From a virus, in the UHGV virus genome UHGV-0076931: 35,663 nucleotides of DNA; one strand, written 5' to 3'. The notes below the pieces were generated by a model that was given only the letters and a program-made list of their open reading frames with translations, had not been told where the DNA came from and did not search any database. The position numbers and the translations under genes were made by a program. This document shows positions 6,687 through 27,598 of the stretch, in pieces; position 1 is the first letter of the stretch; each line of letters starts with the position of its first letter.

Positions 6687-9480
6687 TATCCGGGTCGCTT
6701 TCAGCGCCGTTGACAGGCTGACCCGACCTGCCGAAAACGCCCGCCGCCTGATGGGGCAGTTTGGTGACTCCATCCAGCGAACGCAGGGGGCGATCAAAAA
6801 TCTCGAGCGTCAGGCGCGTTCATTTGAGCGCGCCCGCGACGCTGTCAGTAAAGCGGATGCGGGTATCGTGAAAGCGCGACGCCAGCTTAACGCCCTTAAT
6901 CAGTTACAACGCACGGGTACAGTGCTCAGCGAAAAACAACAAAAGCTGATGCAGCAGTTAAGCACCCGGCTTGAACGCCTGAATGAATCGCGCACACGGG
7001 AAATTCAGAAAATGCGGGAGCTTGGCGGAGAGCTGAAACGCCACGGCATTTCCCTGACAGGCAGCGATAACACCATCCAGCAGGCCATCAGACGCACCGA
7101 ACAGTACAACAACCAGCTTGAACGCGAACGGCAGGCGCTTGCGCGTGTAACGCGGGCGCGTGAGCGGTATTCGCGCGCGCAGGAAACCGCGGGAAAACTG
7201 AAAACAGGTGGTGCGCTGGCAATTGGTGCGGCAGCGGCTGGCGGCTATGCTACCGGGCGTTTTTTGCAGCCTGCGATCGGGTTCGGGAAAGAGATGTCCC
7301 GCGTTCAGGCACTGACGCGAATCGACCAGAACAGCCCGCAGTTTAAGGCGCTGCGTGAGCAGGCGTTAAAACTTGGCTCTGAAACGCAGTTCACCGCAGG
7401 CGATGCCGCCAGTGGGCAGGCATTTCTTGCAATGGCTGGCTTCACACCGCAGGCCATTCAGGCTGCGCTTCCCGGAGTGCTGAGCATGGCAACGGCTGGC
7501 GGTATGGATCTCGGCGAGACGGCTGATATTGGCTCAAATATCCTGACGCAGTTCGGCCTTTCTGCTGACCAGATGGACCGGGTCGGTGACACACTCACCG
7601 CAGCGTTTACCCGTACCAACACTGACCTTCGCGCACTGGGCGAAACCATGAAATATGCAGGTCCGGTGGCGGGCAAGCTGGGAATATCGCTGGAGCAGGC
7701 CGCAGCGATGGCGGGCGTGCTGGCGAATATGGGTATCAGGGGAAGTGATGCCGGGACGGCAATGCGTGCCAGCCTGGCTCGTCTGGCATCACCGCCAAAG
7801 GCGGCAGCAGAGGCGCTGAAAGAGCTGGGCGTGTCTGTCTCGGATGCCGGGGGCAAAATGCGCCCGATGGAGGATGTGCTGGCCGACCTTTATAAAGCCA
7901 CCCGCAAATACGGGGAAGTTGACCGGGTATCGTTCTTTAAGGACATTGCCGGAGAAGAGGCTTTCACATCGTTTATGGCGCTCGTTGATGCAGCGGGTGA
8001 CGGTTCCTTACCCAAACTGAGAAAAGAACTTGAAGGCGCGCGCGGTGAGGCTGAACGCACAGCAAAGGTTATGGCCAACAACCTTGACGGCGATCTGAAA
8101 TCACTCGGCAGTGCATGGGAAGGGTTGCGCATCCGCATTGCAGATCTGATTGACGGTCCGCTGCGTTCTGTCACGCAGTGGCTCACGCGAGTGGTCTCAA
8201 AGGTGACGGCGCTGGCGCAGGCCCATCCCGCACTGACGCGCCAGCTACTGATAGCAGGCGGTGCGTTGCTGGCAATGACTGCAACGGTTGGCTCGTTGTC
8301 GCTGGCTATTGGTGTGCTTGCTGGCCCGCTGGCAAAACTGCGTCTTGGTTTTTCTCTCCTGGCCGGATCAATGAATGTCGTCAGGGTGCTGCCAGCACTA
8401 TGGGGAATGGTAACAGGTTCCATCTCGTTGCTGGGTGGCGCTATCGGGGCGCTGTTCAGTCCGGTTGGTCTTATCGTGGCTGCGCTTGCCGGAGCTGCCG
8501 TTCTTATCTGGAAATACTGGGAACCCATCAAGGCGTTTTATGCCGGGGTGTTCAGCGGGATTATGGAACGGCTGGCTCCGTTGCGCGAAACCTTTGAACG
8601 GTTTGGTCCTGTTTTTGATGTCGTGCGCGATGGGATTATTCAGCTCTTTAACTGGTTTAAATCGCTGCTGTCACCGATGGAGTCCAGCAAGGAAACGCTG
8701 GATAAATGTACCAGTGCTGGCGAGATATTCGGTAACGTTCTTGGTGGCGCGCTACAGCTTGTTCTGACGCCTGCAAAAATGCTGCTGGATACGCTGGCGT
8801 GGATACTTGAAAAACTCGGTGTGCTTCCGGATGAAGCGGAAAGGGCGCGCAAGAAAATCGAAGACGCACAGCGTGCGGCCATTCTTCAGGACAAGGTTGC
8901 CTTGCTTCAGGGGGACCTGGCGAAAATCAATCCGCCGAAGCCTGTGGAAAATGGCAATGGCACCGGAGGTGATAACCCCAAAGACAATAAACCGCTCACA
9001 GACAGCAATACCGGTACGCTGCGCAGACTCAGCAAAATTGCTGATAACACTGGTAAGCTGGTTGAGGAGACGAAAAAACGCATTGGCCCCGGCGATATTG
9101 TCTTTAAAAACCTGCCCCGAGCACTTGCTGTTCGTGGGGAGTGGCAGGAGCGGAAGATTGCGCAGGTCAGTAAGCCTGCCCCCGCAATTAATATCACACC
9201 CGTGGTCCCGGCTCCGCTGCCTCCGGCGCTGGTCCCTGTTGTTGCGGCCAGCTCCCGCCCGGTGGCGGAGGCTATACGATCTCCAGTGGCATCAGTTCCT
9301 GTAACTTCCCGTAACCGCGAGCCTGTTGCCTCCGGATTTGGTGGTGAAATTCATGTTCATCTGCATAACGTTGTTACGCAGAATCCCCGCGAACTGGCGA
9401 AACTGGTCGGTGAAATGGTCAGGGCAGAAATGGAACGGCGCGCCCGTGCCGGGCGTGGCAGTTTTTACGATAAAGATTGA
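6637..9480 (+). CDS. T: Tail tape measure protein
   Basis: 947 aa, coiled-coil N-terminal part, Ala/Gly-rich hydrophobic middle; position after E/E'; exact start uncertain (GTG 6637 or ATG 6664/6673). Confidence 0.9.
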   Translation: MSGRHFAAGMQTMKTLDIRVAFSAVDRLTRPAENARRLMGQFGDSIQRTQGAIKNLERQARSFERARDAVSKADAGIVKARRQLNALNQLQRTGTVLSEKQQKLMQQLSTRLERLNESRTREIQKMRELGGELKRHGISLTGSDNTIQQAIRRTEQYNNQLERERQALARVTRARERYSRAQETAGKLKTGGALAIGAAAAGGYATGRFLQPAIGFGKEMSRVQALTRIDQNSPQFKALREQALKLGSETQFTAGDAASGQAFLAMAGFTPQAIQAALPGVLSMATAGGMDLGETADIGSNILTQFGLSADQMDRVGDTLTAAFTRTNTDLRALGETMKYAGPVAGKLGISLEQAAAMAGVLANMGIRGSDAGTAMRASLARLASPPKAAAEALKELGVSVSDAGGKMRPMEDVLADLYKATRKYGEVDRVSFFKDIAGEEAFTSFMALVDAAGDGSLPKLRKELEGARGEAERTAKVMANNLDGDLKSLGSAWEGLRIRIADLIDGPLRSVTQWLTRVVSKVTALAQAHPALTRQLLIAGGALLAMTATVGSLSLAIGVLAGPLAKLRLGFSLLAGSMNVVRVLPALWGMVTGSISLLGGAIGALFSPVGLIVAALAGAAVLIWKYWEPIKAFYAGVFSGIMERLAPLRETFERFGPVFDVVRDGIIQLFNWFKSLLSPMESSKETLDKCTSAGEIFGNVLGGALQLVLTPAKMLLDTLAWILEKLGVLPDEAERARKKIEDAQRAAILQDKVALLQGDLAKINPPKPVENGNGTGGDNPKDNKPLTDSNTGTLRRLSKIADNTGKLVEETKKRIGPGDIVFKNLPRALAVRGEWQERKIAQVSKPAPAINITPVVPAPLPPALVPVVAASSRPVAEAIRSPVASVPVTSRNREPVASGFGGEIHVHLHNVVTQNPRELAKLVGEMVRAEMERRARAGRGSFYDKD

Positions 9481-9486
9481 GGAGTC

Positions 9487-9981
9487 ATGGCCATGATGAT
9501 GATCTACGGCATGTTTGTTTTTGAGCTGCGCACGCTGCCGCATCAGCAGTTACAGCAAAACAAAAGCTGGCGGCATGTGAAAAATGAACGCGTTAACCGT
9601 TCAGCAAGCTGGCAGTATATCGGTGCAGGTGATGATCGCATCGTTCTTTCTGGTGTGCTTTATCCTGAAATTACAGGTGGCGAAGTGTCGCTGTCGCTGC
9701 TGACCACGCAGGCGTATACAGGACGACCCTGGCCTTTGATTGATGGCGTCGGGCAGATTTACGGTATGTATGTCCTGACCGGAACGAATACGACCCGTTC
9801 CGAGTTTGATCGCTACGGTAAGGCGAAAAAGATAGAATTTTCACTGACCCTTGAACGCTGTGATGAGGATTTGCGGGAGCGCCTGCAATCCTCATCGTTC
9901 AGCGATATGCTGTCCGGCTTCAAAGATAAGGTGACATCATCCCTTAACAGCGCGGCAAGTTCAGTAAAAGGGTTGTTCTGA
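9487..9981 (+). CDS. U: Tail protein U
   Basis: 164 aa directly after T; size and position match P2 gpU. Confidence 0.8.
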   Translation: MAMMMIYGMFVFELRTLPHQQLQQNKSWRHVKNERVNRSASWQYIGAGDDRIVLSGVLYPEITGGEVSLSLLTTQAYTGRPWPLIDGVGQIYGMYVLTGTNTTRSEFDRYGKAKKIEFSLTLERCDEDLRERLQSSSFSDMLSGFKDKVTSSLNSAASSVKGLF

Positions 9982-9993
9982 TTTAACACAAAA

Positions 9994-10020
9994 ACCGCTA
10001 ATGGTCAGATTAGCGGTTTT
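9994..10020. terminator. Bidirectional intrinsic terminator between convergent U and H
   Basis: Stem accgctaat / attagcggt with 6-nt loop, flanked by an A-run upstream and T-run downstream. Confidence 0.7.
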
Positions 10021-10171
10021 CTTTTTCCTTAGTCTTCTCAATTGTTTCTTCAGTCTGTATATCGCCTACAGGGTGATAACGATAAATCGTCGATATACTG
10101 ATACCGTAAATTATTGCCAGTTGTTTTCTGTCATGACCGTTTTTAATAAGCCTTGCTATTTGAATGTTCAC
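10010..10171 (-). pseudogene. Remnant of a serine DNA invertase (Hin/Gin/Cin/Pin-type), C-terminal HTH only
   Basis: Hand translation ...IARLIKNGHDRKQLAIIYGISISTIYRYHPV... resembles the C-terminal HTH of Hin-family invertases; no room upstream for a catalytic domain (H stop at 10217). Confidence 0.5.
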
Positions 10172-10216
10172 CCAAGGAATGCCTCCCTTAAGAAAGGGGG
10201 CAACCTTACCTACAAA

Positions 10217-12814
10217 TCAGTATTTATAATAACGTCCAGGCAGCACAGGAGAGTTAACATTCCAGAACCCCTGCGGATCGCATGCCAGTATCATCCAGGC
10301 TGTATTACAGGAGGACGGCCACGGTGGCATATCATCATTATCGGGGTAGTCACACGAATCAATATAACCGTAGCGTGTGCGCAGTGGTGCCAGCCTCGCC
10401 AGAATATCCATCGCGGTGGTATCATCTCCCAGTCTGCGGGCCAGCAATGCCACGCCTGCACTGCCCTCCACCCAGACTCCACGCTGTTTATTCGGGTAGC
10501 CATATTCCGGATGATAAGGCGTGTACCCTGTCGCATCGTGCGTGGCGTACCAGAGTCTGCCCAGGTAAGTAAAACACCGCCGGGCTTTTTCCATATCTAT
10601 ATTGGCCACAAACAGCCCTCCCCAGCTCGCGCAGTCCAGCGGTGAGGCCTTGTCCACCCCGGTAGTCCGCATCCCGGCATAAAATCGTCCTTCGTCCTCC
10701 ACCCACAGTTTTTCCATAATGGCATCCGCCAGGGCTTTCGCTTTTTCAGCATAGCCGGTGAAGCCCAACCGTCCCATCAGATCAAACAAAAACCACAGGT
10801 CGAACTGATGTTCTGACGTGCACCAGTCTGCGTCAAAATCCGGATAAAACACACCATTCAGATACTGTCCGCTACCGGATGTATACAAACCAGAGCGAAC
10901 ATCACTGCCATCTGTGACCCTGAACATTTCAATCCATTCTGCGCACTGCATCAGTTTATCCCGGGCAACAACGGCCATTTCACCGTCCGGATATTTCAGC
11001 AGATAATACGCCAGCGCATACGCCACCCACGCTGCGTTTCCCGTCCGGTAATACTGCGATGATGTTTGTGCTGACATACGGTTCACAAAAAAAGGCACGC
11101 TTCCCTCACTGCCTCCGCTGCCCACAATCGCACACAACCCGCGAACAAAACGCTCAACCTGACTGTGCCCCTGCGCCATCAGGGCAATGGCCGACACAGC
11201 CTGGTCGTAAGTGTACGTACGGTCTTTCATCACCCTTACCGTTTCGTCTCCGGCATCCGATGGCACCCGGTAAGAGCGGATACACAGCGGGTCTTCCCAG
11301 ACAGTTACCAGACCGTTATTTGATGTACGATACAGTTTAAAAGACTTGGCCCCCGGCCAGCTTCTGGCGAAACTGAACGTGCCGTCACTCTCTAATACTA
11401 CAGAGGAAAACTGATATTCCAGAGTTGTGCTGGCACACAGCGCAATGGTGTAGCTCTGCGGATCACCGATACTGCACTGACCTGTGACCGGACCGGTATA
11501 GTCCGTTGTCAGCTCTTCATTTACCGTCAGCGTAACGGATTTGTTGTACACATCAGGGGCATTCAGCGATAAAAGTTCCGCTGTGCAGGTTTCCGCCAGT
11601 GTGTAAAAATTTTCCACCCGGCTGTTGCGTTCGCAGGTTGTGATCTGCGAGTGAAATTTATCAATTATTTCCGTTAATCGAAGGTAATCTAGAACATCCT
11701 CAGCACTGGTCTTACTAATAATTTCACGTCCAACACTTGTTAATGCAGTTAATGCGGCACGATTTGCCCCTGTAAAATAAGGGAGTTTATCTGCTGATGT
11801 AGCAAGCTCCGCCAGCGCCGTCAGGGTGGCATCCTTCGGTTGCTTACCCGCAAGCGCGTCAATCACGGTGGTTGCAAAATTAGGGTCATTGCCCAGCGCC
11901 GCAGCCAGTTCGTTCAGCGTGTTCAGTGCATCAGGTGACGAATCTACAAGTGCGGCAATCGCGGCCATAACGAAAGCCGTGCTTGCGATCTGGGCATTAT
12001 TAGTCCCCTGTGGCGCTGTTGGTGTTGTTGGCGTTCCGGTCAGTGCCGGGCTGTTTAATGGTGCTTTCTTGTTCGTTTCATCCATTACCACCTTGACAGC
12101 TTTTGGTGTCGCTGCCAGCGTTTCAGACGTGCTGTTCGTGGCGCTACTGAGCTGAACAATCCCTTTTTGTGTAGTGGTGGCGTTCTGGGCGGTATATTTC
12201 CCGTTAGCCAGGTCATATGCAGCCTTAACCGCTTTCGGTGTTGCGGCCAGTGTTTCTGATTCACTGTTAATTGCACTGCTTAACTGAGTAAAACCTTTTA
12301 CGGTCAGCGAGGCGTCCGGGTGACGTCGTGACTGTTCGTGCTCTGATATTTTATCATCCACATATTTGCGGGTTGCCAGAACCACAGACGGGTCGATTTT
12401 CAGCGTGATGGCTTCGGTGTTCGTGACAACCAGAATCATTCGGATAGTCTGGGTGCGTCCACTGCCTTCCTGCAACTGCGGTTTGTACGTTTCCGGGCAG
12501 TTTGCCACCGCAATGAGTACACCTTCATCATCATAAAGACCAATCTCACGGATCCAGAATCCTCCCTCGTTTTCAGGGATGATTTGCTCCGCAATAATCT
12601 GGCTCTGATTGTTAGGGTCAACACTCAGAAGATTCAGCGGTGCAATGCGTTTCTGGTTAATCAGTTTTGTTTGTGCAGGGTCTGGTGTTGGTAACACACC
12701 ATTTGCATCACCAACGGCCATTTGCGTCAGATTCAGCTTACTGCCGAGCATCGTCGCGTTAGCCAGTCGTGCCGCGCCCTGATTAGTCAGAATGGCGTAG
12801 TATTTCACTGTCAT
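10217..12814 (-). CDS. H: Tail fibre protein H, chimeric: P2 gpH-type N-terminus plus distinct C-terminal domain
   Basis: N-terminal ~370 aa match P2 gpH including the duplicated LSSA(I/T)NS(E/T)SETLAATPKAVK repeats; remaining ~490 aa unrelated, rich in W/Y/D/E. Confidence 0.9.
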   Translation of the reverse strand: MTVKYYAILTNQGAARLANATMLGSKLNLTQMAVGDANGVLPTPDPAQTKLINQKRIAPLNLLSVDPNNQSQIIAEQIIPENEGGFWIREIGLYDDEGVLIAVANCPETYKPQLQEGSGRTQTIRMILVVTNTEAITLKIDPSVVLATRKYVDDKISEHEQSRRHPDASLTVKGFTQLSSAINSESETLAATPKAVKAAYDLANGKYTAQNATTTQKGIVQLSSATNSTSETLAATPKAVKVVMDETNKKAPLNSPALTGTPTTPTAPQGTNNAQIASTAFVMAAIAALVDSSPDALNTLNELAAALGNDPNFATTVIDALAGKQPKDATLTALAELATSADKLPYFTGANRAALTALTSVGREIISKTSAEDVLDYLRLTEIIDKFHSQITTCERNSRVENFYTLAETCTAELLSLNAPDVYNKSVTLTVNEELTTDYTGPVTGQCSIGDPQSYTIALCASTTLEYQFSSVVLESDGTFSFARSWPGAKSFKLYRTSNNGLVTVWEDPLCIRSYRVPSDAGDETVRVMKDRTYTYDQAVSAIALMAQGHSQVERFVRGLCAIVGSGGSEGSVPFFVNRMSAQTSSQYYRTGNAAWVAYALAYYLLKYPDGEMAVVARDKLMQCAEWIEMFRVTDGSDVRSGLYTSGSGQYLNGVFYPDFDADWCTSEHQFDLWFLFDLMGRLGFTGYAEKAKALADAIMEKLWVEDEGRFYAGMRTTGVDKASPLDCASWGGLFVANIDMEKARRCFTYLGRLWYATHDATGYTPYHPEYGYPNKQRGVWVEGSAGVALLARRLGDDTTAMDILARLAPLRTRYGYIDSCDYPDNDDMPPWPSSCNTAWMILACDPQGFWNVNSPVLPGRYYKY

Positions 12815-13419
12815 GCGTTTACTCTCAGATTATCAATTAAATGAATGGCCGGGGCAGGGAAATAATCCCCTTCGGCAATAATGGACTCCGGGGTGTAGGG
12901 ATAAACCGTCAGGGCATCGCCGTGATAGCATCCCGTACCAACGAAAATCTTTCCGTTCACACTCAGGCTGATCGCCAGCCCCGTCAGATGGCGACTTACT
13001 GGTTTTGCATCCGCAATAAGGCGCTCAAGTTCCTGATACATTTCATCGGTGATGCCCTGATCAAGTACTCCGACAACAATGCGAAATGTTCCTGGCTCCT
13101 CGTTGAGTTGCCACCACTCCTTTACTTCAATCAGGTAGCCGAGAGGCTCCACGGCTCTTCGCAGTGCGCTGATGGTCCCTTTGTGTCGGTGTATCAGCCA
13201 TGCATCACGAATAACCTGTCGCTTTGTCTCTTCCGGCCAGTTGCGATCCCAGCGGTCAACGGAAAATGCCCAGGCGAGATAAGGCAGCAGATGCACCGGG
13301 CAGGTATCCGGCGACCACAGCGTGTTGAGGTCTACCGGAATGTCTGTAATGCGTGTTCCGACGGCTTCGGCACAACGCATGAAACTGCTGGCTGATGGCG
13401 GTAACAGTGAATTACTCAT
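12811..13419 (-). CDS. I: Baseplate / tail fibre-associated protein I
   Basis: Position between J and H; start set at ATG 13419 with GGTGGG SD (ORF extends to 13452). Confidence 0.75.
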   Translation of the reverse strand: MSNSLLPPSASSFMRCAEAVGTRITDIPVDLNTLWSPDTCPVHLLPYLAWAFSVDRWDRNWPEETKRQVIRDAWLIHRHKGTISALRRAVEPLGYLIEVKEWWQLNEEPGTFRIVVGVLDQGITDEMYQELERLIADAKPVSRHLTGLAISLSVNGKIFVGTGCYHGDALTVYPYTPESIIAEGDYFPAPAIHLIDNLRVNA

Positions 13420-14308
13420 TGCGCCCACCTTCGCTGATGGTAAATGACTCACAGCGCGCCGCCTGTATGTCGCTGATGGCCATATTCTGTGTGGGTTCGA
13501 TTATCTCTACGCGTTGCACGCCGTGCACATGAAGTGCGGCAGCAATGGCGGACAACGCCACGTCCTGACCGATAAGCCCCTGTTCAGCCAGCCACTTCCT
13601 GAATGACGATTCCGCCGCGGCCAGAATAGGTTCGGATTCCGGACCGGGGTAAAAGTACAGTTTTGCATTCAGCCGCCATGTCACGATTCTGGCGCTCTGT
13701 ACGGTCAGGCGGTCGGCCACCGGGCGGGTATCCTCTGCATTCAGAACGGCGCGAACGGTATTAAGCAACGCCTCCGTTGCTGTGCCGTCGCCCTCAGTGG
13801 ACAGGATGGAAACCGTCACACAGGCCGGAGAAGGGCTGATGGCCCGCGCATCACGCACCAGACCGCTGGCGCTGCGTGCAAAATACTCGTATGCACCTGA
13901 CGGGCCAGCAACACTCAGGCCGTCGTACGCCCGCTGCGCCCGCAGTCTCAGCGAGGTGTCGCTCTCCATCACCGCGTCGGTGGTATCCGTTGCCGGAGTG
14001 ATAACCAGGCGCTTTGTGTTCATATTGCCCGCGAGGTTGTCCAGGTTTGTCCCTGAACCGTGGCTTAACATGCAGGCGCGTGCGCCCTCGTTAACCCGCT
14101 GGCGTAACAGCATTTCACGAAACGACATGGTTTGAGCGATAACGTTAAGGGGTTCCGATTCCAGCTCCAGCGCGGCGGAGACGGCTTCACGCTGTTCGGC
14201 AGGATAGGACGCAATCATCATGGCTTTTGTGTCAGCCAGAATTACCTCAAAGTCAGGCTCCGCGATGATGGCGGGTTCCGGTAACTGGGAAAGGTCAACG
14301 GCGGGCAT
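13412..14308 (-). CDS. J: Baseplate assembly protein J
   Basis: 298 aa; position and size match P2 gpJ. Confidence 0.88.
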   Translation of the reverse strand: MPAVDLSQLPEPAIIAEPDFEVILADTKAMMIASYPAEQREAVSAALELESEPLNVIAQTMSFREMLLRQRVNEGARACMLSHGSGTNLDNLAGNMNTKRLVITPATDTTDAVMESDTSLRLRAQRAYDGLSVAGPSGAYEYFARSASGLVRDARAISPSPACVTVSILSTEGDGTATEALLNTVRAVLNAEDTRPVADRLTVQSARIVTWRLNAKLYFYPGPESEPILAAAESSFRKWLAEQGLIGQDVALSAIAAALHVHGVQRVEIIEPTQNMAISDIQAARCESFTISEGGRNE

Positions 14309-14311
14309 GAT

Positions 14312-14662
14312 TTACTCCCTCAGCGTGATGGTTAATTCAACATTCTGCATGGTCTGCATGACAGTGCCCGACAACGTCACCCCGGCGCGGCCTCCCGCTT
14401 TCCAGACAACGTCGATGGCGTCCAGGGCAATGCGGGGTTCCCATCGTGTCAGCGCAATCACGGCAGCACTCATGCATTGAAGACGCGTGGTGTTATTCAT
14501 GGGTTCGTCAATTAAATCGGGCACAAGGCTGCCATATTCCCGTCGCATAACCCGGCTTGCCAGCGGGGTGGTCAGGATGTCCCTGACTGACTGTTTCAGG
14601 TGCTCCATATCGTTCAGGTTTCCCGTTCCGTCCGGGTTCATTCCTGTGTAGCGGGTTGTCAC
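14312..14662 (-). CDS. W: Baseplate wedge protein W
   Basis: 116 aa; size and position match P2 gpW. Confidence 0.85.
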   Translation of the reverse strand: MTTRYTGMNPDGTGNLNDMEHLKQSVRDILTTPLASRVMRREYGSLVPDLIDEPMNNTTRLQCMSAAVIALTRWEPRIALDAIDVVWKAGGRAGVTLSGTVMQTMQNVELTITLRE

Positions 14663-15240
14663 TGCGGGCCTCCTGTCGAATCGCTGCCACCTTTAACGCC
14701 ACCGTGTTTATGCGTATGCACTGTGATGCCGTTTGAGGTGAAATCGCCGCCGCTGTGCGTGATATTGCCGCTCATTTTTCCCCCTTTTGTGACGTCAAGC
14801 GTCGCTGTTCTCAGAAGGTCTGTGCATTCCACGACAGGCGTGTCCAGTGTCACGCTGACGGATGCCTGCAGGGTGGCCGTTTTCATGCCGCTGGCGCTCA
14901 GTGCGCCTGCGTCCGCGTCGTAGCGGAACACCGCGCCGTCCGGCGCGCTGATCACGATTTCTTTCAGGCTTTTGCCGGGTGCCGGACTGGCATCACTCCA
15001 CAGGCTGCCAATTATCATGGCGGTTTCCGGGTTGCCGCCAATGCAGGCAATTACCACCTGTTCGCCTGGTGATGGCGGCAGCCACACATTGAAGGCTCCC
15101 GCGCGCGTGGTGTTCCAGCGCAACCAGCCTGTTTCCAGTTCGCCGCTGCGAACGCGCACGCGCCAGGACTTCTCATCAACTTCAGAGATGATCCCGGTGC
15201 GGATGATATTGCTCAGCAGTCGCATGAGTTCTGCGCTCAC
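14659..15240 (-). CDS. V: Baseplate spike protein V
   Basis: 193 aa; position before W, 4-nt overlap with S. Confidence 0.85.
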   Translation of the reverse strand: MSAELMRLLSNIIRTGIISEVDEKSWRVRVRSGELETGWLRWNTTRAGAFNVWLPPSPGEQVVIACIGGNPETAMIIGSLWSDASPAPGKSLKEIVISAPDGAVFRYDADAGALSASGMKTATLQASVSVTLDTPVVECTDLLRTATLDVTKGGKMSGNITHSGGDFTSNGITVHTHKHGGVKGGSDSTGGPQ

Positions 15241-23065: not shown

Positions 23066-24111
23066 TGAGCAGAAAAAATAAAAAAGTGCGCATGAGTTCA
23101 CGCATTGATCTCGCTGATGCGCTCAGGAAAGAATCGTCGCTCAGTGCATTCACATTTGATGGTCCTTATCGCCTGACCGGGCATGATCTGCTGGATAATA
23201 TGTACTGTGCTGATAACGGGCGGTGGTATGAAACCCCGGTGGACTGGTACGGTCTGGCAAGAGCTGCCCGGCAAACGTCCTGGCATCAGTCTGCGCTTTA
23301 CTTTAAGCGCAATGTATTGCTCGGTTGCTATATTCCGCACCCGCTGCTTTCCCGGCAGGATTTCTCGGCGCTGGCGCTGGACTGGTTTATGTTCGGTAAC
23401 GCATTCCTTGAGCTTCGAAACAATATGCTCGGCGAACCGCTTAAATTACGGCACGCTCTGGCGAAATACATGCGACGCGGAAGCGATCTTGAATCATGGT
23501 GGTATGTGCAGGATGGCAAGGACGCGTTCCAGTTTCGCCCTGGCAAAGTGTGCCACCTGATGAATCCGGATATTAACCAGGAAATCTACGGCATGCCGGA
23601 ATATCTTGGCGCATTACTCTCGGCCAGCCTGTCTCATTCGGCGGACATGTTCAGAAAACTGTATTACGACAACGGATCCCACGCCGGGTGCATCATCTAC
23701 ATCGGTGCAGCGCAGGTAAACCGTGAAAGCATGGACTCCCTGAAAGAAACGCTACAGGGTGCACGTGGTGGTGGTGCGTTTAAAAACGTGCTCATTCATG
23801 CGCCCAACGGGGGCAAAGAAGGTGTGCAAATTTTGCCGTTCCAGCAGATCACCGCAAAGGATGAGTTCATGAATGTTAAGTCGGCATCCCGTGATGATGT
23901 GCTGGCTGCGCACCGCGTTCCGCCGCAACTGATGGGGGCGATGCCGGGCGAAAAAAGTGCGTTTGGTGATGTGGAGAAGGCCGCGCGGGTTTACGCAATT
24001 AACGAGCTGATGCCTGTCATGGAGGCCATGAAGCACATCAATGACTGGCTTGGCGAAGAGGTGATCCGTTTTAATTCTTATGCTCTTCTTGATGAAAAAA
24101 CAGCCCCGTGA
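23065..24111 (+). CDS. Q: Portal protein Q
   Basis: 348 aa; start overlaps the P stop (ATGA); size and position match P2 gpQ. Confidence 0.9.
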   Translation: MSRKNKKVRMSSRIDLADALRKESSLSAFTFDGPYRLTGHDLLDNMYCADNGRWYETPVDWYGLARAARQTSWHQSALYFKRNVLLGCYIPHPLLSRQDFSALALDWFMFGNAFLELRNNMLGEPLKLRHALAKYMRRGSDLESWWYVQDGKDAFQFRPGKVCHLMNPDINQEIYGMPEYLGALLSASLSHSADMFRKLYYDNGSHAGCIIYIGAAQVNRESMDSLKETLQGARGGGAFKNVLIHAPNGGKEGVQILPFQQITAKDEFMNVKSASRDDVLAAHRVPPQLMGAMPGEKSAFGDVEKAARVYAINELMPVMEAMKHINDWLGEEVIRFNSYALLDEKTAP

Positions 24112-24127
24112 TGGGGCTGTCCTTTTT
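24101..24127. terminator. Bidirectional intrinsic terminator between convergent Q and the 174-aa gene
   Basis: Stem cagcccc / ggggctg with 5-nt loop, flanked by aaaaaa upstream and ttttt downstream; includes the Q stop codon. Confidence 0.7.
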
Positions 24128-24650
24128 ACCAGAGTTGAACCATTTTCTGGGTGCCGTCAGGCTTGAGATTATCAATTTCAGAGAGAACGTAATATTGAAT
24201 GGCTTCACAAACGGTGGTGTATGGTGAATTACCTTCTTTAAGTGGCACGATATTATTATTAACGCGAACCTGTATTTCATCGTTATACATTGCGATCGAA
24301 AGAGGAGTATGCACGAACGCGACTTCGCCAGGTGTGTCGTCAACCACTGTCTCAATGCTGAAAATCAGTTTTCGCTCATCATTGCCGCCCCTTGCTTTGG
24401 GGGTAGCGGCAGGAATCTGAGATAAAGGCATTCTGCGAAACCCTTCAGTTGTTTCCAGTCCGCATGAAACGTAATGCTGGCGATTACCGTCGCTATCCGT
24501 CCATGTCTGTGATGGCAGCTCCAGAGAGATTTCATAAGCATCAACAATTCCCTGGGCAAGGTGTACAAGCGGGGTCAGATCTTCATTGCGGCGAAAACTT
24601 TCCTTTACCTGCTCTCGTTTTTCTCGTAACTGCTTGTAATTAATGACCAT
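24126..24650 (-). CDS. Hypothetical protein (174 aa), accessory gene next to portal
   Basis: Lower GC than flanking phage genes; start placed at ATG 24650 with GGAGG SD (ORF extends to 24689); no recognisable motifs. Confidence 0.6.
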   Translation of the reverse strand: MVINYKQLREKREQVKESFRRNEDLTPLVHLAQGIVDAYEISLELPSQTWTDSDGNRQHYVSCGLETTEGFRRMPLSQIPAATPKARGGNDERKLIFSIETVVDDTPGEVAFVHTPLSIAMYNDEIQVRVNNNIVPLKEGNSPYTTVCEAIQYYVLSEIDNLKPDGTQKMVQLW

Positions 24651-25149
24651 AAAACAGCCTCCATTGATTTCTTTGCTCGTATTTTGCACTTATGAAGTGT
24701 GGTCGGCAAGGTGCCGCATCACTGACGCGCTTCGCTTGTCTGCTGCTTCGCCGAGGCATAAAAAATTTATGCCCCGACTCTCCAGCTCCTGTATCAATCA
24801 GATAATTTCACGACGTCTTCCGACTTATCGCTATCATCGACAGTCAGGCTCTTACGCAATCCCGCCGCGCTGACTGCATGTTCTCGCCGCCTCAGTGCGA
24901 TTTTAATGGCCTTACCTTTCATCCCATCAAATCAGAACCCCTTACGTCTTTTTCACGTTCAGTGTGAGCGATACAGCCATTCTGTTGTGTCGCTGCGACA
25001 TCGTTCAGGGAATGCTATTTACCCCCTGAAACGCGGGCTGTTCCCCCGTCACCTGCGCGCAGAAAAAGCGCGTTTTTTTGTGCACGCACGGATCCTTGAC
25101 GGATCCAACCGCCATGCGGGCCGGAAGGGTAAAAAGTCGTTCAAAAAAA

Positions 25150-25176
25150 TTGTGCAAATTTGTGCACTATTGTGCA
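25150..25176. repeat. Three direct TTGTGCA repeats at exact 10-bp phasing
   Basis: ttgtgca at 25150, 25160 and 25170, immediately beside the terminator hairpin at 25187-25207. Confidence 0.5.
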
Positions 25177-25186
25177 TTGAAATAAA

Positions 25187-25207
25187 CGCCCTGAAAGAGG
25201 GCGTTTT
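25187..25207 (-). terminator. Intrinsic terminator ending the minus-strand accessory operon
   Basis: Stem cgccct / agggcg with loop gaaag; T-rich flank on both strands. Confidence 0.6.
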
Positions 25208-25216
25208 GGCTCATTT

Positions 25217-25477
25217 CTATAGCTTTGATGCAGGTTGGGCTAGATGTAATGGTTGGACATACCAGCCTTTTGATAACCAACTCTCTGCAACCTCTTTACT
25301 CCTTGTTATTGCTGGTATTCCGATGCCGTTATTTACATGCATCCATGCTACTGGCTCTGCTTCCAGCGATGCCAGAGCAATTTCATAAGCACGGCGTTCA
25401 ATATTGTCTCTCACGTCTAGGCTGCCTATGCGCTCTTTGATTTCTTTAATCATTTCTTTGTCGGTTAAAGTGGTCAT
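25217..25477 (-). CDS. Hypothetical protein (86 aa)
   Basis: ORF in tight operon arrangement; no recognisable motifs. Confidence 0.5.
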   Translation of the reverse strand: MTTLTDKEMIKEIKERIGSLDVRDNIERRAYEIALASLEAEPVAWMHVNNGIGIPAITRSKEVAESWLSKGWYVQPLHLAQPASKL

Positions 25478-25487
25478 GGGTCAGTTC

Positions 25488-25613
25488 TCAACCAATAGTT
25501 ATGTGAATGAAAGAAAGCAGCCAAAGAATGGACTCAATAACTGCCCAACCAATAACGGCGCAAATGACACCGAAAACAACGAAAAAACCAGTACCAGGCA
25601 AATTATTGAACAT
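25488..25613 (-). CDS. Small hydrophobic membrane peptide (41 aa)
   Basis: Hand translation MFNNLPGTGFFVVFGVICAVIGWAVIESILWLLSFIHITIG; AAGGAG SD; ATG 2 nt after the upstream stop; not in the ORF track. Confidence 0.4.
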   Translation of the reverse strand: MFNNLPGTGFFVVFGVICAVIGWAVIESILWLLSFIHITIG

Positions 25614-25615
25614 CC

Positions 25616-25930
25616 TCACTCTCCTTTGATGCCAGTGTTTACAACCTGACAAGCCTCTTTGAGCACCCAGTCAATAGCATCTTTCCATGCTCCGGTTTCG
25701 GCTGGCGGATTCTCACGCTTTACCAGTTCATAGAAACGTACTGCTCTAACCAGTCCATCTGACGGTTTTGCCTGTAGTGCAGCCTGAGCTATGCGGTATG
25801 CCTGGAGTATACGGGCGTCGTTGATATCCATTCCGAACGGAATTTCTGATGATTGTGATTCTGCATCTTCAAGCCTGGCAATTTCTTTACGTAAAAAGTA
25901 TTTCAACTCTTGTTTTTGTTTTCTGTTCAT
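25616..25930 (-). CDS. Hypothetical protein (104 aa)
   Basis: ORF with 4-nt overlap to the upstream gene; no recognisable motifs. Confidence 0.55.
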
Positions 25931-26259
25931 GCGTTTTTTTCCTTTTTGTCTGTCACTTCTTTCCTGATAATTTCATTGCACAAATCCACGCACTCATTGC
26001 AGATGTAAACAGACGGTCCGGCAATCACCTTTGTGACTTCGTACTGGGATTTATTGCAGAAACTGCAATAAACCGTCTTCTCGCCTGAAGTCCATGTTTT
26101 GCTGGTTTCGCCAGACATCAGTTGTTTGAGGTCTTTTTCACGACGAAGAACTATCTGGCCACATTCAGCTATTTTTTGGATGTTGACATTTTCTTCTTTC
26201 GCCAGCGCTTCCATCCGCTCAATCAGTCGCTGCGCTTTTTCTCTGTCAATGTGTTGCAT
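25927..26259 (-). CDS. Small protein with ClpX-type C4 zinc-finger domain (110 aa)
   Basis: C-terminal half [34 protein letters not shown] closely resembles the N-terminal zinc-binding domain of ClpX; no AAA+ domain; AAGGGGGA SD. Confidence 0.7.
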
Positions 26260-26322
26260 TGTGTCCCCCTTGTTTATGCTCCCGGGTTAAAGTCATCAGG
26301 GCGGATGCGCCCTGATGTTGTG

Positions 26323-26634
26323 TTATTCGGGAAATAACGCCCGGATATTTCCGGCCATCTGACTGGTTATCTGTGCGGTTGATACTGGCTGTGACGCGGG
26401 GCGTTCTGTCCTGGTTTGTGGCACTGATAACGCCTCATCATCAGCCCATGCAGCCAGTCGGTAAGCCTCTGCCGGATTCATTTTCAGTAGTGCCAGCCCG
26501 GCCAGAAAAGCCACGCGTTGGCCGCTTTTGCGGGCTTCTGGTGTAAGGCTGTCCAGCCAGGCGCATGCTTCGCCTTCGTTCTTGACGGCGGCGGGCTTCA
26601 GATAGAAACTTATCCGTCTGGTTGGTGTTGTCAT
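26323..26634 (-). CDS. parR: ParR-like partition adaptor / repressor
   Basis: Start at ATG 26634 with AAGGAG SD, 4 nt after the parM stop; RISFYLKP...LAGLALL...NIRALFPE pattern as I recall it from R1 ParR. Confidence 0.65.
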   Translation of the reverse strand: MTTPTRRISFYLKPAAVKNEGEACAWLDSLTPEARKSGQRVAFLAGLALLKMNPAEAYRLAAWADDEALSVPQTRTERPASQPVSTAQITSQMAGNIRALFPE

Positions 26635-26638
26635 TGGT

Positions 26639-27598
26639 TTACTCCTTGTCCATTGCGTACAGCCCATTAACCAGAGCAAACTGTGGCACCCCGTCCGCGA
26701 TGAAAGTCGCATTAACTCCGCAGGCTTCGCGGATAGCGGGTGCCACAATCTCCGCCCCTCCACCGACAACCATCGCCCGCCCGTAACCCGAAAAACCCGC
26801 CAGCGCGCGGATCACGCGTTGTTTCAGTGTTTCTTCCTTTTCACGAATAACAGCCATCAGGCTGTCGTAATGCGCGTCATTGTGGATGTGCTGGCGCAGC
26901 CAGGCTTCATCATGGCGATGTTCGATAATGGTATTGGCGATATGGTGACTGGTGCGCATACCGTTAGTGGCCATCACCGACAGTACGGCATCGGCCATCA
27001 GGGAAACGCCTACGTGTGGATCGCAAAACACCTGGCTGATACCTGCCAGTTGCCCCTGAACCTTTGCCACATCCAGCGTGGTTCCGCCCAAATCCACAAT
27101 CAGCAGGGATTCAAACGGACTCATGTCAGCCAGTGCTTTAAAGCCAGCCGGAATGGATTCAGGCATAACCCGCACGTTACGGATAGTGAATGCTTCGCCG
27201 TTCTGGTACTCCACCGGGCGCATAACGTTCGCTTTTTTGCGGTTGATGTTGGCCATGTCCGGCTGTGCGTTTGTGTCGAAATACTCGCTCAGTGGCAGGG
27301 TGACAACCACATCCACCTCCTGTGGCGTGATGCCTGATTTGACCAGCGCGTGATGAATGGCAATTACATTCACATCGCTGTACTGGTATTGCGTGTCGGT
27401 CGTCTGGACAAAGCGATCGCTGACCGGATCAAAACCATAGCGCACGCCATCAAGCATGTAGTTTGCGGGCTGCGTGCCACCGAACGGCGCAGACCATTCC
27501 GACTTGAAGCTGTTCGGGCTGATGGCGTTGCGGCGTTCTCCGTTCTCAGTCCATGCCAGCTTGATGTTGGTGGAGCCGTCATCGATACAAATTTTCAT
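26639..27598 (-). CDS. parM: ParM (StbA) actin-like plasmid segregation ATPase
   Basis: Collinear match to R1 ParM blocks: IDDGSTNIKL, ISPNSFK, YSDVNVIAIHHAL, VMPESIPAGF, DLGGTTLD, GGGAE, LVNGLY. Confidence 0.88.
   Translation of the reverse strand: MKICIDDGSTNIKLAWTENGERRNAISPNSFKSEWSAPFGGTQPANYMLDGVRYGFDPVSDRFVQTTDTQYQYSDVNVIAIHHALVKSGITPQEVDVVVTLPLSEYFDTNAQPDMANINRKKANVMRPVEYQNGEAFTIRNVRVMPESIPAGFKALADMSPFESLLIVDLGGTTLDVAKVQGQLAGISQVFCDPHVGVSLMADAVLSVMATNGMRTSHHIANTIIEHRHDEAWLRQHIHNDAHYDSLMAVIREKEETLKQRVIRALAGFSGYGRAMVVGGGAEIVAPAIREACGVNATFIADGVPQFALVNGLYAMDKE

Follow-up and report, generated by a model that had tools for sequence, protein, structure and literature searches.

The window analysed here is the whole of a 35,663-nucleotide stretch of viral DNA (UHGV virus genome UHGV-0076931), and the element studied is its tail fibre gene H. 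The window region is 100% identical to a prophage of Escherichia coli ECL27977, inserted between flk and pdxB, in which the P2-family set of head, tail, lysis, replication and integrase/integration genes is complete. An original prediction, made from the letters of the window, had read the open reading frame (ORF) at 10217..12814 as a chimeric tail fibre, P2 gpH-like over its first ~370 residues and unrelated to gpH over the last ~490. The ORF does have the coordinates and the fibre character then given to it; it lies on the minus strand and codes for 865 amino acids (aa). The features of the locus are as follows.

10217..12814, minus strand: tail fibre gene H, 865 aa, a three-part mosaic; PHROG 7032 'tail fiber protein', the same protein as RefSeq WP_000217024.1 'phage tail protein'
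12365..12814, minus strand: baseplate-attachment domain, aa 1-150; PF12571 tail-collar fibre N-terminus (Pfam E 4e-62)
11681..12364, minus strand: fibre shaft, aa 151-378, P2 gpH-like; two PF03406 repeats (Pfam E 1e-40)
10163..11680, minus strand: replaced block, the foreign C-terminal module plus 54 nt past the stop codon; blastn breakpoints against the E. coli E89 prophage
11285..11617, minus strand: predicted beta-sandwich domain, about aa 400-510; strands at 20-128 of the modelled segment in the model secondary structure, spanned by Foldseek alignments to two-domain GH78 rhamnosidases
10277..11248, minus strand: predicted (alpha/alpha)6 six-hairpin barrel, about aa 523-846; putative active site Y536, D537, R590, E668, H669, D672, D721, D727, W731, E783, W840
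10010..10171, minus strand: relic of a serine DNA invertase (Gin/Cin/Hin type), C-terminal helix-turn-helix only; Pfam HTH_7 E 2.7e-9, PHROG 125 'DNA invertase'
9991..10020, no strand: hairpin with a 12-bp stem (terminator scan), flanked by T-runs, lying where the gpU gene converges with the fibre/invertase relic
12811..13452, minus strand: gpI-type baseplate protein, directly upstream of the fibre gene; Pfam Tail_P2_I (PF09684) E 3.6e-53

Judging by the ORF coordinates, the stop codon of gpI overlaps the start codon of the fibre gene, and the hairpin at 9991-10020 is probably a bidirectional terminator. The match to PHROG 7032 runs from end to end, which means that the architecture is already present in the databases, under generic names only.

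Gene H is a recombinant fibre whose N-terminal 378 residues (baseplate anchor and trimeric shaft) are of Gemsvirus/P2-type myovirus origin. BLASTP aligned fibre residues 1-387 with P2 gpH at 70% identity and returned nothing significant beyond residue 387, in line with both halves of the original prediction, and a tblastn search of the whole window with P2 gpH residues 391-669 gave a best E of 5. The Pfam matches of the 865-aa fibre (PF12571 and two PF03406) are likewise confined to the N-terminal part. The fibre of the Gemsvirus phage 500465-2 (Peduoviridae) is closer there than that of P2, being 100% identical over the first 155 aa. The gene thus shares with the P2 gpH and Gemsvirus fibres the PF12571 anchor, the PF03406 shaft and the position after gpI, while differing from them in a receptor-binding C-terminus that is wholly replaced and in lacking a gpG/Tfa gene; its membership of the gpH family is limited to the N-terminal 378 residues.

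At the DNA level, blastn against the E. coli E89 prophage matched window positions 9400-10162 at 94.6% and 11681-13000 at 97.3%, and the intervening 1518 bp differ, this DNA being absent from the E89 prophage, which is related and of Gemsvirus type. This places the breakpoints at 11680/11681 (about aa 378) and at 10162/10163. Over window positions 10257-11643 the sequence shares 95% identity with the 3' end portion of a gene for a 'tail fiber/spike domain-containing protein' in an unrelated siphovirus-type prophage, and the G+C content across the fibre gene is about 0.49-0.53, compared with 0.58-0.60 in the baseplate genes. The fibre region of the E89 prophage itself is shattered.

The segment aa 381-865 was modelled as a monomer with ColabFold, using a 25-sequence alignment. 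The model (mean pLDDT 79.8, pTM 0.84) consists of a low-confidence helix (aa 382-397), a beta-sandwich that spans about aa 400-510 and a helical barrel at about aa 523-846, and two-domain GH78 rhamnosidases rank first in a Foldseek search with it. The last ~487 residues are therefore best described, on the strength of this model, as a predicted self-contained receptor-binding tip made of a neck helix, a beta-sandwich and an (alpha/alpha)6 six-hairpin barrel, the barrel fold being that of the six-hairpin glycoside hydrolases (GH). The model shows neither a beta-helix nor a beta-propeller catalytic domain, the common depolymerase classes. Of the checks that had been put forward with the original prediction, structure prediction supported a carbohydrate-active module, while profile searches with Pfam and NCBIfam did not connect it with a described GH family: the C-terminal part has no Pfam match even at E<=10, which also holds for the autoproteolytic chaperone Peptidase_S74 (aa 381-865), and no NCBIfam match. 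No sequence relatives were found in the PDB either by phmmer or with a 50-sequence family profile, and when 50 distant homologs were run against Pfam, only 2 gave marginal matches to MGH1-like_GH (GH63-like), at E 0.008. Among predicted viral structures, a mere handful match the model. As for composition, the C-terminal part had been described as rich in aromatic and acidic residues; the first is borne out (13.3% vs 4.0% in aa 1-378), and the second holds to a slight extent (11.9% vs 9.8%). The foreign module (aa 379-865, window 10220-11680) also contains 13 cysteines, compared with 1 in the first 378 residues, and five of these are invariant among close homologs (C30, C67, C181, C285 and C367 in segment numbering).

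An exhaustive HMMER search of 1.84 billion representatives returned 508 clusters at E<=0.001. The distant members of the family comprise large multidomain proteins as well as 'hypothetical proteins' from environmental bacteria, and many of the short or cellular homologs have N-termini resembling signal peptides or lipoproteins according to a crude heuristic. Conservation was assessed over 128 homologs less than 40% identical to the query. Y536, D537, R590, W664, E668, H669, D672, W704, D721, D727, W731, W781, E783, W840 and several glycines are kept in 85-100% of them, with E668, D672, D727 and E783 conserved at 98-99% and D537 at 95% among these distant sequences, as candidates for a catalytic pair of carboxylates facing the pocket of the barrel. 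Carboxylates together with a histidine, an arginine, a tyrosine and several tryptophans have the look of a glycosidase pocket, and would fit an active carbohydrate enzyme. The three motifs quoted in the original prediction (one of them CASWGGLF) lie at aa 536-549, 667-682 and 728-735 and hold eight of the conserved residues. Its carbohydrate-active reading is supported at the level of fold, conservation and, as described below, context. E783 is found at roughly the same relative position in the chain as the catalytic base Glu262 of the 345-residue MmpH (PMC9883506), a comparison of positions along the chain, which makes the correspondence suggestive only. Searching a word-indexed protein collection with a distant-homolog profile yielded mainly enterobacterial copies and added little, and the genomic context of two distant homologs, one on a bacterial chromosome and the other on a large myovirus contig, gave no clue to the substrate.

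The same module (aa ~383-865) is found behind several other anchors. It follows PF18668 tailspike anchors in proteins of 636 aa and PF08400 lambda Stf-type anchors in proteins of 608-907 aa, including one in the Stf slot after J-lom in phage phiSTEC1575-Stx2k; a 673-aa module protein fills the tailspike slot of a P22-like prophage, just ahead of the lysis genes; and the module is also present in a P1 S-type fibre and as a stand-alone protein of 482-494 aa, as in the jumbo phage ph0011. Counting the window fibre, it is used in six architectures. A conserved anchor followed by an exchangeable C-terminal domain at the receptor-binding protein (RBP) position of several phage types is the modular build of depolymerases, and a search with P2 gpG found no gpG/Tfa homolog in any of the module-bearing loci examined. 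Judged by its behaviour, the module is a portable, chaperone-independent domain that binds or destroys a receptor. The original prediction that it sets host range is supported to the extent that five other tail architectures have it in the receptor-binding position; an actual effect on host range is predicted.

Some features of these loci were noted in passing. The homolog in Escherichia phage ph0011 (348 kb), 494 aa long and 46% identical, stands alone: it is encoded at 4938-6422 of its locus among many small hypothetical genes and outside any tail cluster, and may be either a soluble enzyme or a virion protein that has escaped recognition. In phiSTEC1575-Stx2k, the 609-aa homolog in Stf position is followed by a 99-aa hypothetical ORF (5408-5707) at the position of lambda tfa, with no similarity to P2 gpG. 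In E. coli C012 (locus 7915-10617), the 900-aa gene directly upstream of the tailspike-type homolog is annotated as 'sulfur carrier protein ThiS', but, considering how large it is and that it follows the tape measure and DUF1833 genes, it is almost certainly a misannotated tail tip protein.

The history of the locus can be read from its downstream side. In phage 500465-2, gpU is followed by a DNA invertase gene, an ORF for an alternative tip, a pair of tail fibre assembly (tfa) genes and the 501-aa fibre gene H. These make up a Mu/P1-style invertible host-range switch, which is the ancestral arrangement in the lineage. The window, unlike this phage, has no working invertase and no alternative tip. 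What it does have is the relic at 10010-10171, which the original prediction had missed and which RefSeq lists as a pseudogene without N-terminus: 53 aa that align with residues 150-193 of the 195-aa invertase of 500465-2 at 78% identity, the catalytic domain being gone. Its place directly downstream of the fibre gene and beside gpU is that seen in the Mu G segment with Gin, the P1 C segment with Cin and the Gemsvirus 500465-2 cassettes. Unlike those systems, the window retains 53 invertase codons and a single fixed tip; no intact serine recombinase with an N-terminal catalytic domain, no alternative tip or tfa ORF and no match to the hix/gix-like crossover core site AAACCNNGGTTT, with one mismatch allowed, were found in it. 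The fibre system was an invertible switch in the past and is not one at present.

The absence of a gpG-like chaperone gene, also part of the original prediction, is confirmed: tblastn of P2 gpG against the whole window gave a best E of 0.55, and RefSeq annotates no tail fibre assembly protein in the identical prophage. This is not a separate oddity, since the two chaperone genes were lost in the same replacement as the alternative tip and most of the invertase. A P1-like element shows the same arrangement, with an 818-aa fibre (94% identical from aa 220 on) that comes after the P1 gp16 and R genes and is followed by a 44-aa HTH_7 fragment and then by lydB and darA. Window positions 10066-12067 are 96.6% identical to this P1-like contig and share its deletion junction; the match continues past the stop codon and the spacer into the invertase relic, of which it covers the first ~35 codons. 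The same junction between module and relic in both elements indicates that it arose once and then moved between P1-like and P2-like phages, for which the simplest route would be homologous recombination, with the conserved shaft as one site of exchange and the 3' end of the invertase gene as the other. A literature search on the loss of a P1-like invertible fibre gave nothing relevant.

Taken together, these data suggest the following explanation. The tip would bind a bacterial surface polysaccharide in an acidic, tryptophan-lined pocket of the barrel and then cleave it, which would let the phage reach the outer membrane in the manner of tailspike depolymerases. We propose that no chaperone gene is present because the module, folding as a globular enzyme domain, needs no Tfa/gpG chaperone. 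The cassette would have replaced the ancestral invertible segment, i.e. two alternative tips with two chaperone genes, as well as three quarters of the gene for the invertase, and would move between phage types by the recombination described above. We consider it highly probable that a six-hairpin receptor-binding tip of carbohydrate-active type was gained by cassette replacement. For actual cleavage of the glycan by the module we lean only slightly towards a positive answer, and the explanation as a whole (recombinant fibre, glycan-cleaving tip, cassette replacement and chaperone independence) seems to us somewhat on the probable side. Some points weigh against it: the family lacks a Pfam, NCBIfam or PDB sequence relative and has no characterised member; the model is of a single chain, while the trimeric shaft would have to seat three globular domains; and association with a single O-antigen, considered below, was tested and failed.

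The alternative that fares best is a non-catalytic, lectin-like tip, in which the six-hairpin fold and its sugar pocket have been kept for binding the glycan without cleaving it. Similarity at the level of fold is no proof of catalysis, and the lack of a characterised member in the family, as well as the different O-types of the carriers, would suit a binding module; P2- and P1-type fibres, moreover, normally just bind the lipopolysaccharide core. On the other hand, the five or six carboxylates, the histidine and the arginine are near-invariant at 24-40% identity, cellular non-fibre proteins with signal peptides included, which is rare for pure binding sites, and in P22-like prophages the module stands at the tailspike position, where enzymes are the rule. 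We therefore regard a lectin-like tip as unlikely, though worth keeping in mind.

The receptor itself was approached through the strains that carry the module. A close copy (at least ~85% nucleotide identity) is present in 24 of 5426 complete E. coli genomes, and the whole fibre gene in 8 of the 5426, these 8 records representing six strains in which the gene is 98-100% identical. Four strains hold 2-3 diverged copies of the module in different prophages (E275a, for example, has both the 865-aa fibre and the 673-aa tailspike form), and such multiple copies hint at a strain-restricted receptor. Together with the rarity of the module and its tailspike position in P22-like and PF18668-type prophages, this is what would be expected from a classical tailspike-type O-antigen depolymerase bound to one O serogroup. 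The O-types of the carriers speak against it. Strains with 100% identical module DNA have O70, O2/O50 and O80 clusters, a 95%-identical copy is found in a strain with a fourth, GDP-fucose-type O-antigen cluster, and an O141 strain is the source of a P1-type copy with 96% identity. Conversely, the O70 wzx-wzy region occurs in 8 genomes, and only the four assemblies of ECL27977 and ECL27829 (two strains) have the module. Specificity for the O-antigen of one serogroup was consequently rejected and is, in our judgement, improbable: since lysogens with an identical module include O70, O2/O50 and O80 strains, the target is not one O-antigen. Candidate receptors are a capsule, another exopolysaccharide, the enterobacterial common antigen or the core oligosaccharide. 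As a tentative suggestion, which we hold to be possible and rather less than probable, the module would found an unclassified family of glycoside hydrolases or lyases, with ~500 clusters in phages and secreted bacterial proteins, whose version in phages of Enterobacteriaceae degrades a strain-restricted polysaccharide other than O-antigen, e.g. a capsule or exopolysaccharide, and which forms a portable chaperone-free cassette common to P2-, P1-, P22- and lambda-type phages.

Two further observations concern the chromosome of ECL27977. Beside sbcB (36243-43756) lies a decayed P22-like element that encodes a separate 'phage tailspike protein' as well as a gtrA/gtrB-like operon for O-antigen modification, and the O70 cluster of the strain includes an ISAs1 transposase.

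It is also conceivable that the barrel performs another chemistry on the same fold, as a sugar epimerase/isomerase or a polysaccharide lyase, and is not a hydrolase. The polysaccharide lyase 5nok is indeed in the Foldseek list, and the conservation of H669 could be taken in the same sense. AGE enzymes have two catalytic histidines, however, and H669 is the only one conserved among the distant homologs; an epimerase would also have no obvious use at the tip of a fibre. This alternative taken as a whole appears quite improbable, although a lyase has to be taken seriously, and it too would make the module a depolymerase. Finally, a dead gene left over in a defective prophage, as an accidental fusion by illegitimate recombination that gives no working fibre, is very improbable despite the neighbouring invertase pseudogene and the state of the fibre region in the related E89 prophage, because the reading frame is intact across the module junction and translational coupling with gpI is retained, the gene is under purifying selection (ratio of nonsynonymous to synonymous rates, dN/dS, about 0.34 against a 95%-identical copy), it is preserved almost unchanged in six strains of different O-types, its junction is also kept in the P1-like element, and the gene set of the prophage is complete.

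A glycan-cleaving six-hairpin tip can be compared with the tailspike and fibre depolymerases (P22 gp9, HK620, the CBA120 TSPs and the K1F endosialidase). Like these, the window fibre combines a conserved anchor with an exchangeable C-terminus of carbohydrate-active type, has no separate chaperone gene and carries a module that has been swapped horizontally among unrelated tails; unlike them, its module is a predicted (alpha/alpha)6 barrel and not a parallel beta-helix or beta-propeller, and its activity is predicted. Alpha/alpha toroids make up 11 of 984 predicted depolymerase domains in one survey (PMC11326577) and 29 of about 3900 in another (PMC12491483), and going by its model the module would belong to this rare class, about 1% or less of predicted depolymerases. 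In the literature, no characterised tailspike with a six-hairpin or toroid domain was found, only computational surveys. The six-hairpin hydrolases of GH15/clan GH-L and MmpH (9ju0, 5z3a, 1ulv, 7qsj) have conserved Glu and Asp residues at comparable relative positions, but share only 11-15% sequence identity with the module, which has no Pfam GH or PDB sequence match and sits on a virion fibre.

The host-range swap is of a well-known kind, an exchanged RBP with an enzyme-like tip, and what is unusual is the enzyme family, which has not been studied. The conceptual surprise is thus limited, as the exchange of RBP modules is well established and the alpha/alpha-toroid class is already present in computational surveys. 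Nearly all studied phage depolymerases are nevertheless beta-helices or propellers, and a six-hairpin barrel that works on the fibres of myoviruses, the spikes of podoviruses and siphoviruses and the side fibres of lambda would widen the set of receptor-destroying folds. The module would offer a compact, chaperone-independent part for retargeting phages and tailocins and, as it has no Pfam, CAZy-type or structural annotation, a single biochemical characterisation would annotate hundreds of clusters. The locus also provides a clear record of how a phase-variable fibre with an invertase, two tips and two chaperones was traded for a fixed tip, followed by cassette exchange between P1-like and P2-like phages.

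In the rest of the prophage, the orientation of the tail genes is distinctive. The sheath-tube-E-E'-tape measure-U block (4406-9981, plus strand) and the V-W-J-I-H block (10217-15240, minus strand) converge on the fibre gene, with gene D oriented divergently from the sheath gene on its upstream side. P2 has H, G and the FI-U operon all on one strand. The convergent layout is shared by phage 500465-2 and the E89 prophage and is therefore characteristic of the lineage.

An AT-rich island (window 1500-3100, G+C 0.33 vs about 0.55 around it) separates the ogr-like gene from gene D; it has the appearance of cargo picked up at a variable spot of P2 type and contains an ORF on the minus strand (1896-2966, 356 aa) annotated in RefSeq as 'PIN domain-containing'. 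The segment at 24000-26500, beside the portal gene, has a G+C of 0.45-0.47 and small ORFs of 187, 160, 104 and 110 aa, and is possibly a further cargo or hotspot region. PADLOC gave no defence-system match for the ORFs of the AT-rich island or for these small ORFs. By analogy with the RefSeq annotation of a near-identical prophage, 26639-27598 (minus strand) and a neighbouring ORF, beside the replication endonuclease gene, would code for a ParM-like segregation protein and a 'plasmid partitioning/stability' protein. On the minus strand at the left prophage end (window 50-1360) are a gene for a DNA methyltransferase (PADLOC MTase_II, E 4e-64), the start of which is overlapped by that of a Com-family zinc-finger regulator, and a Hok/Gef toxin gene.

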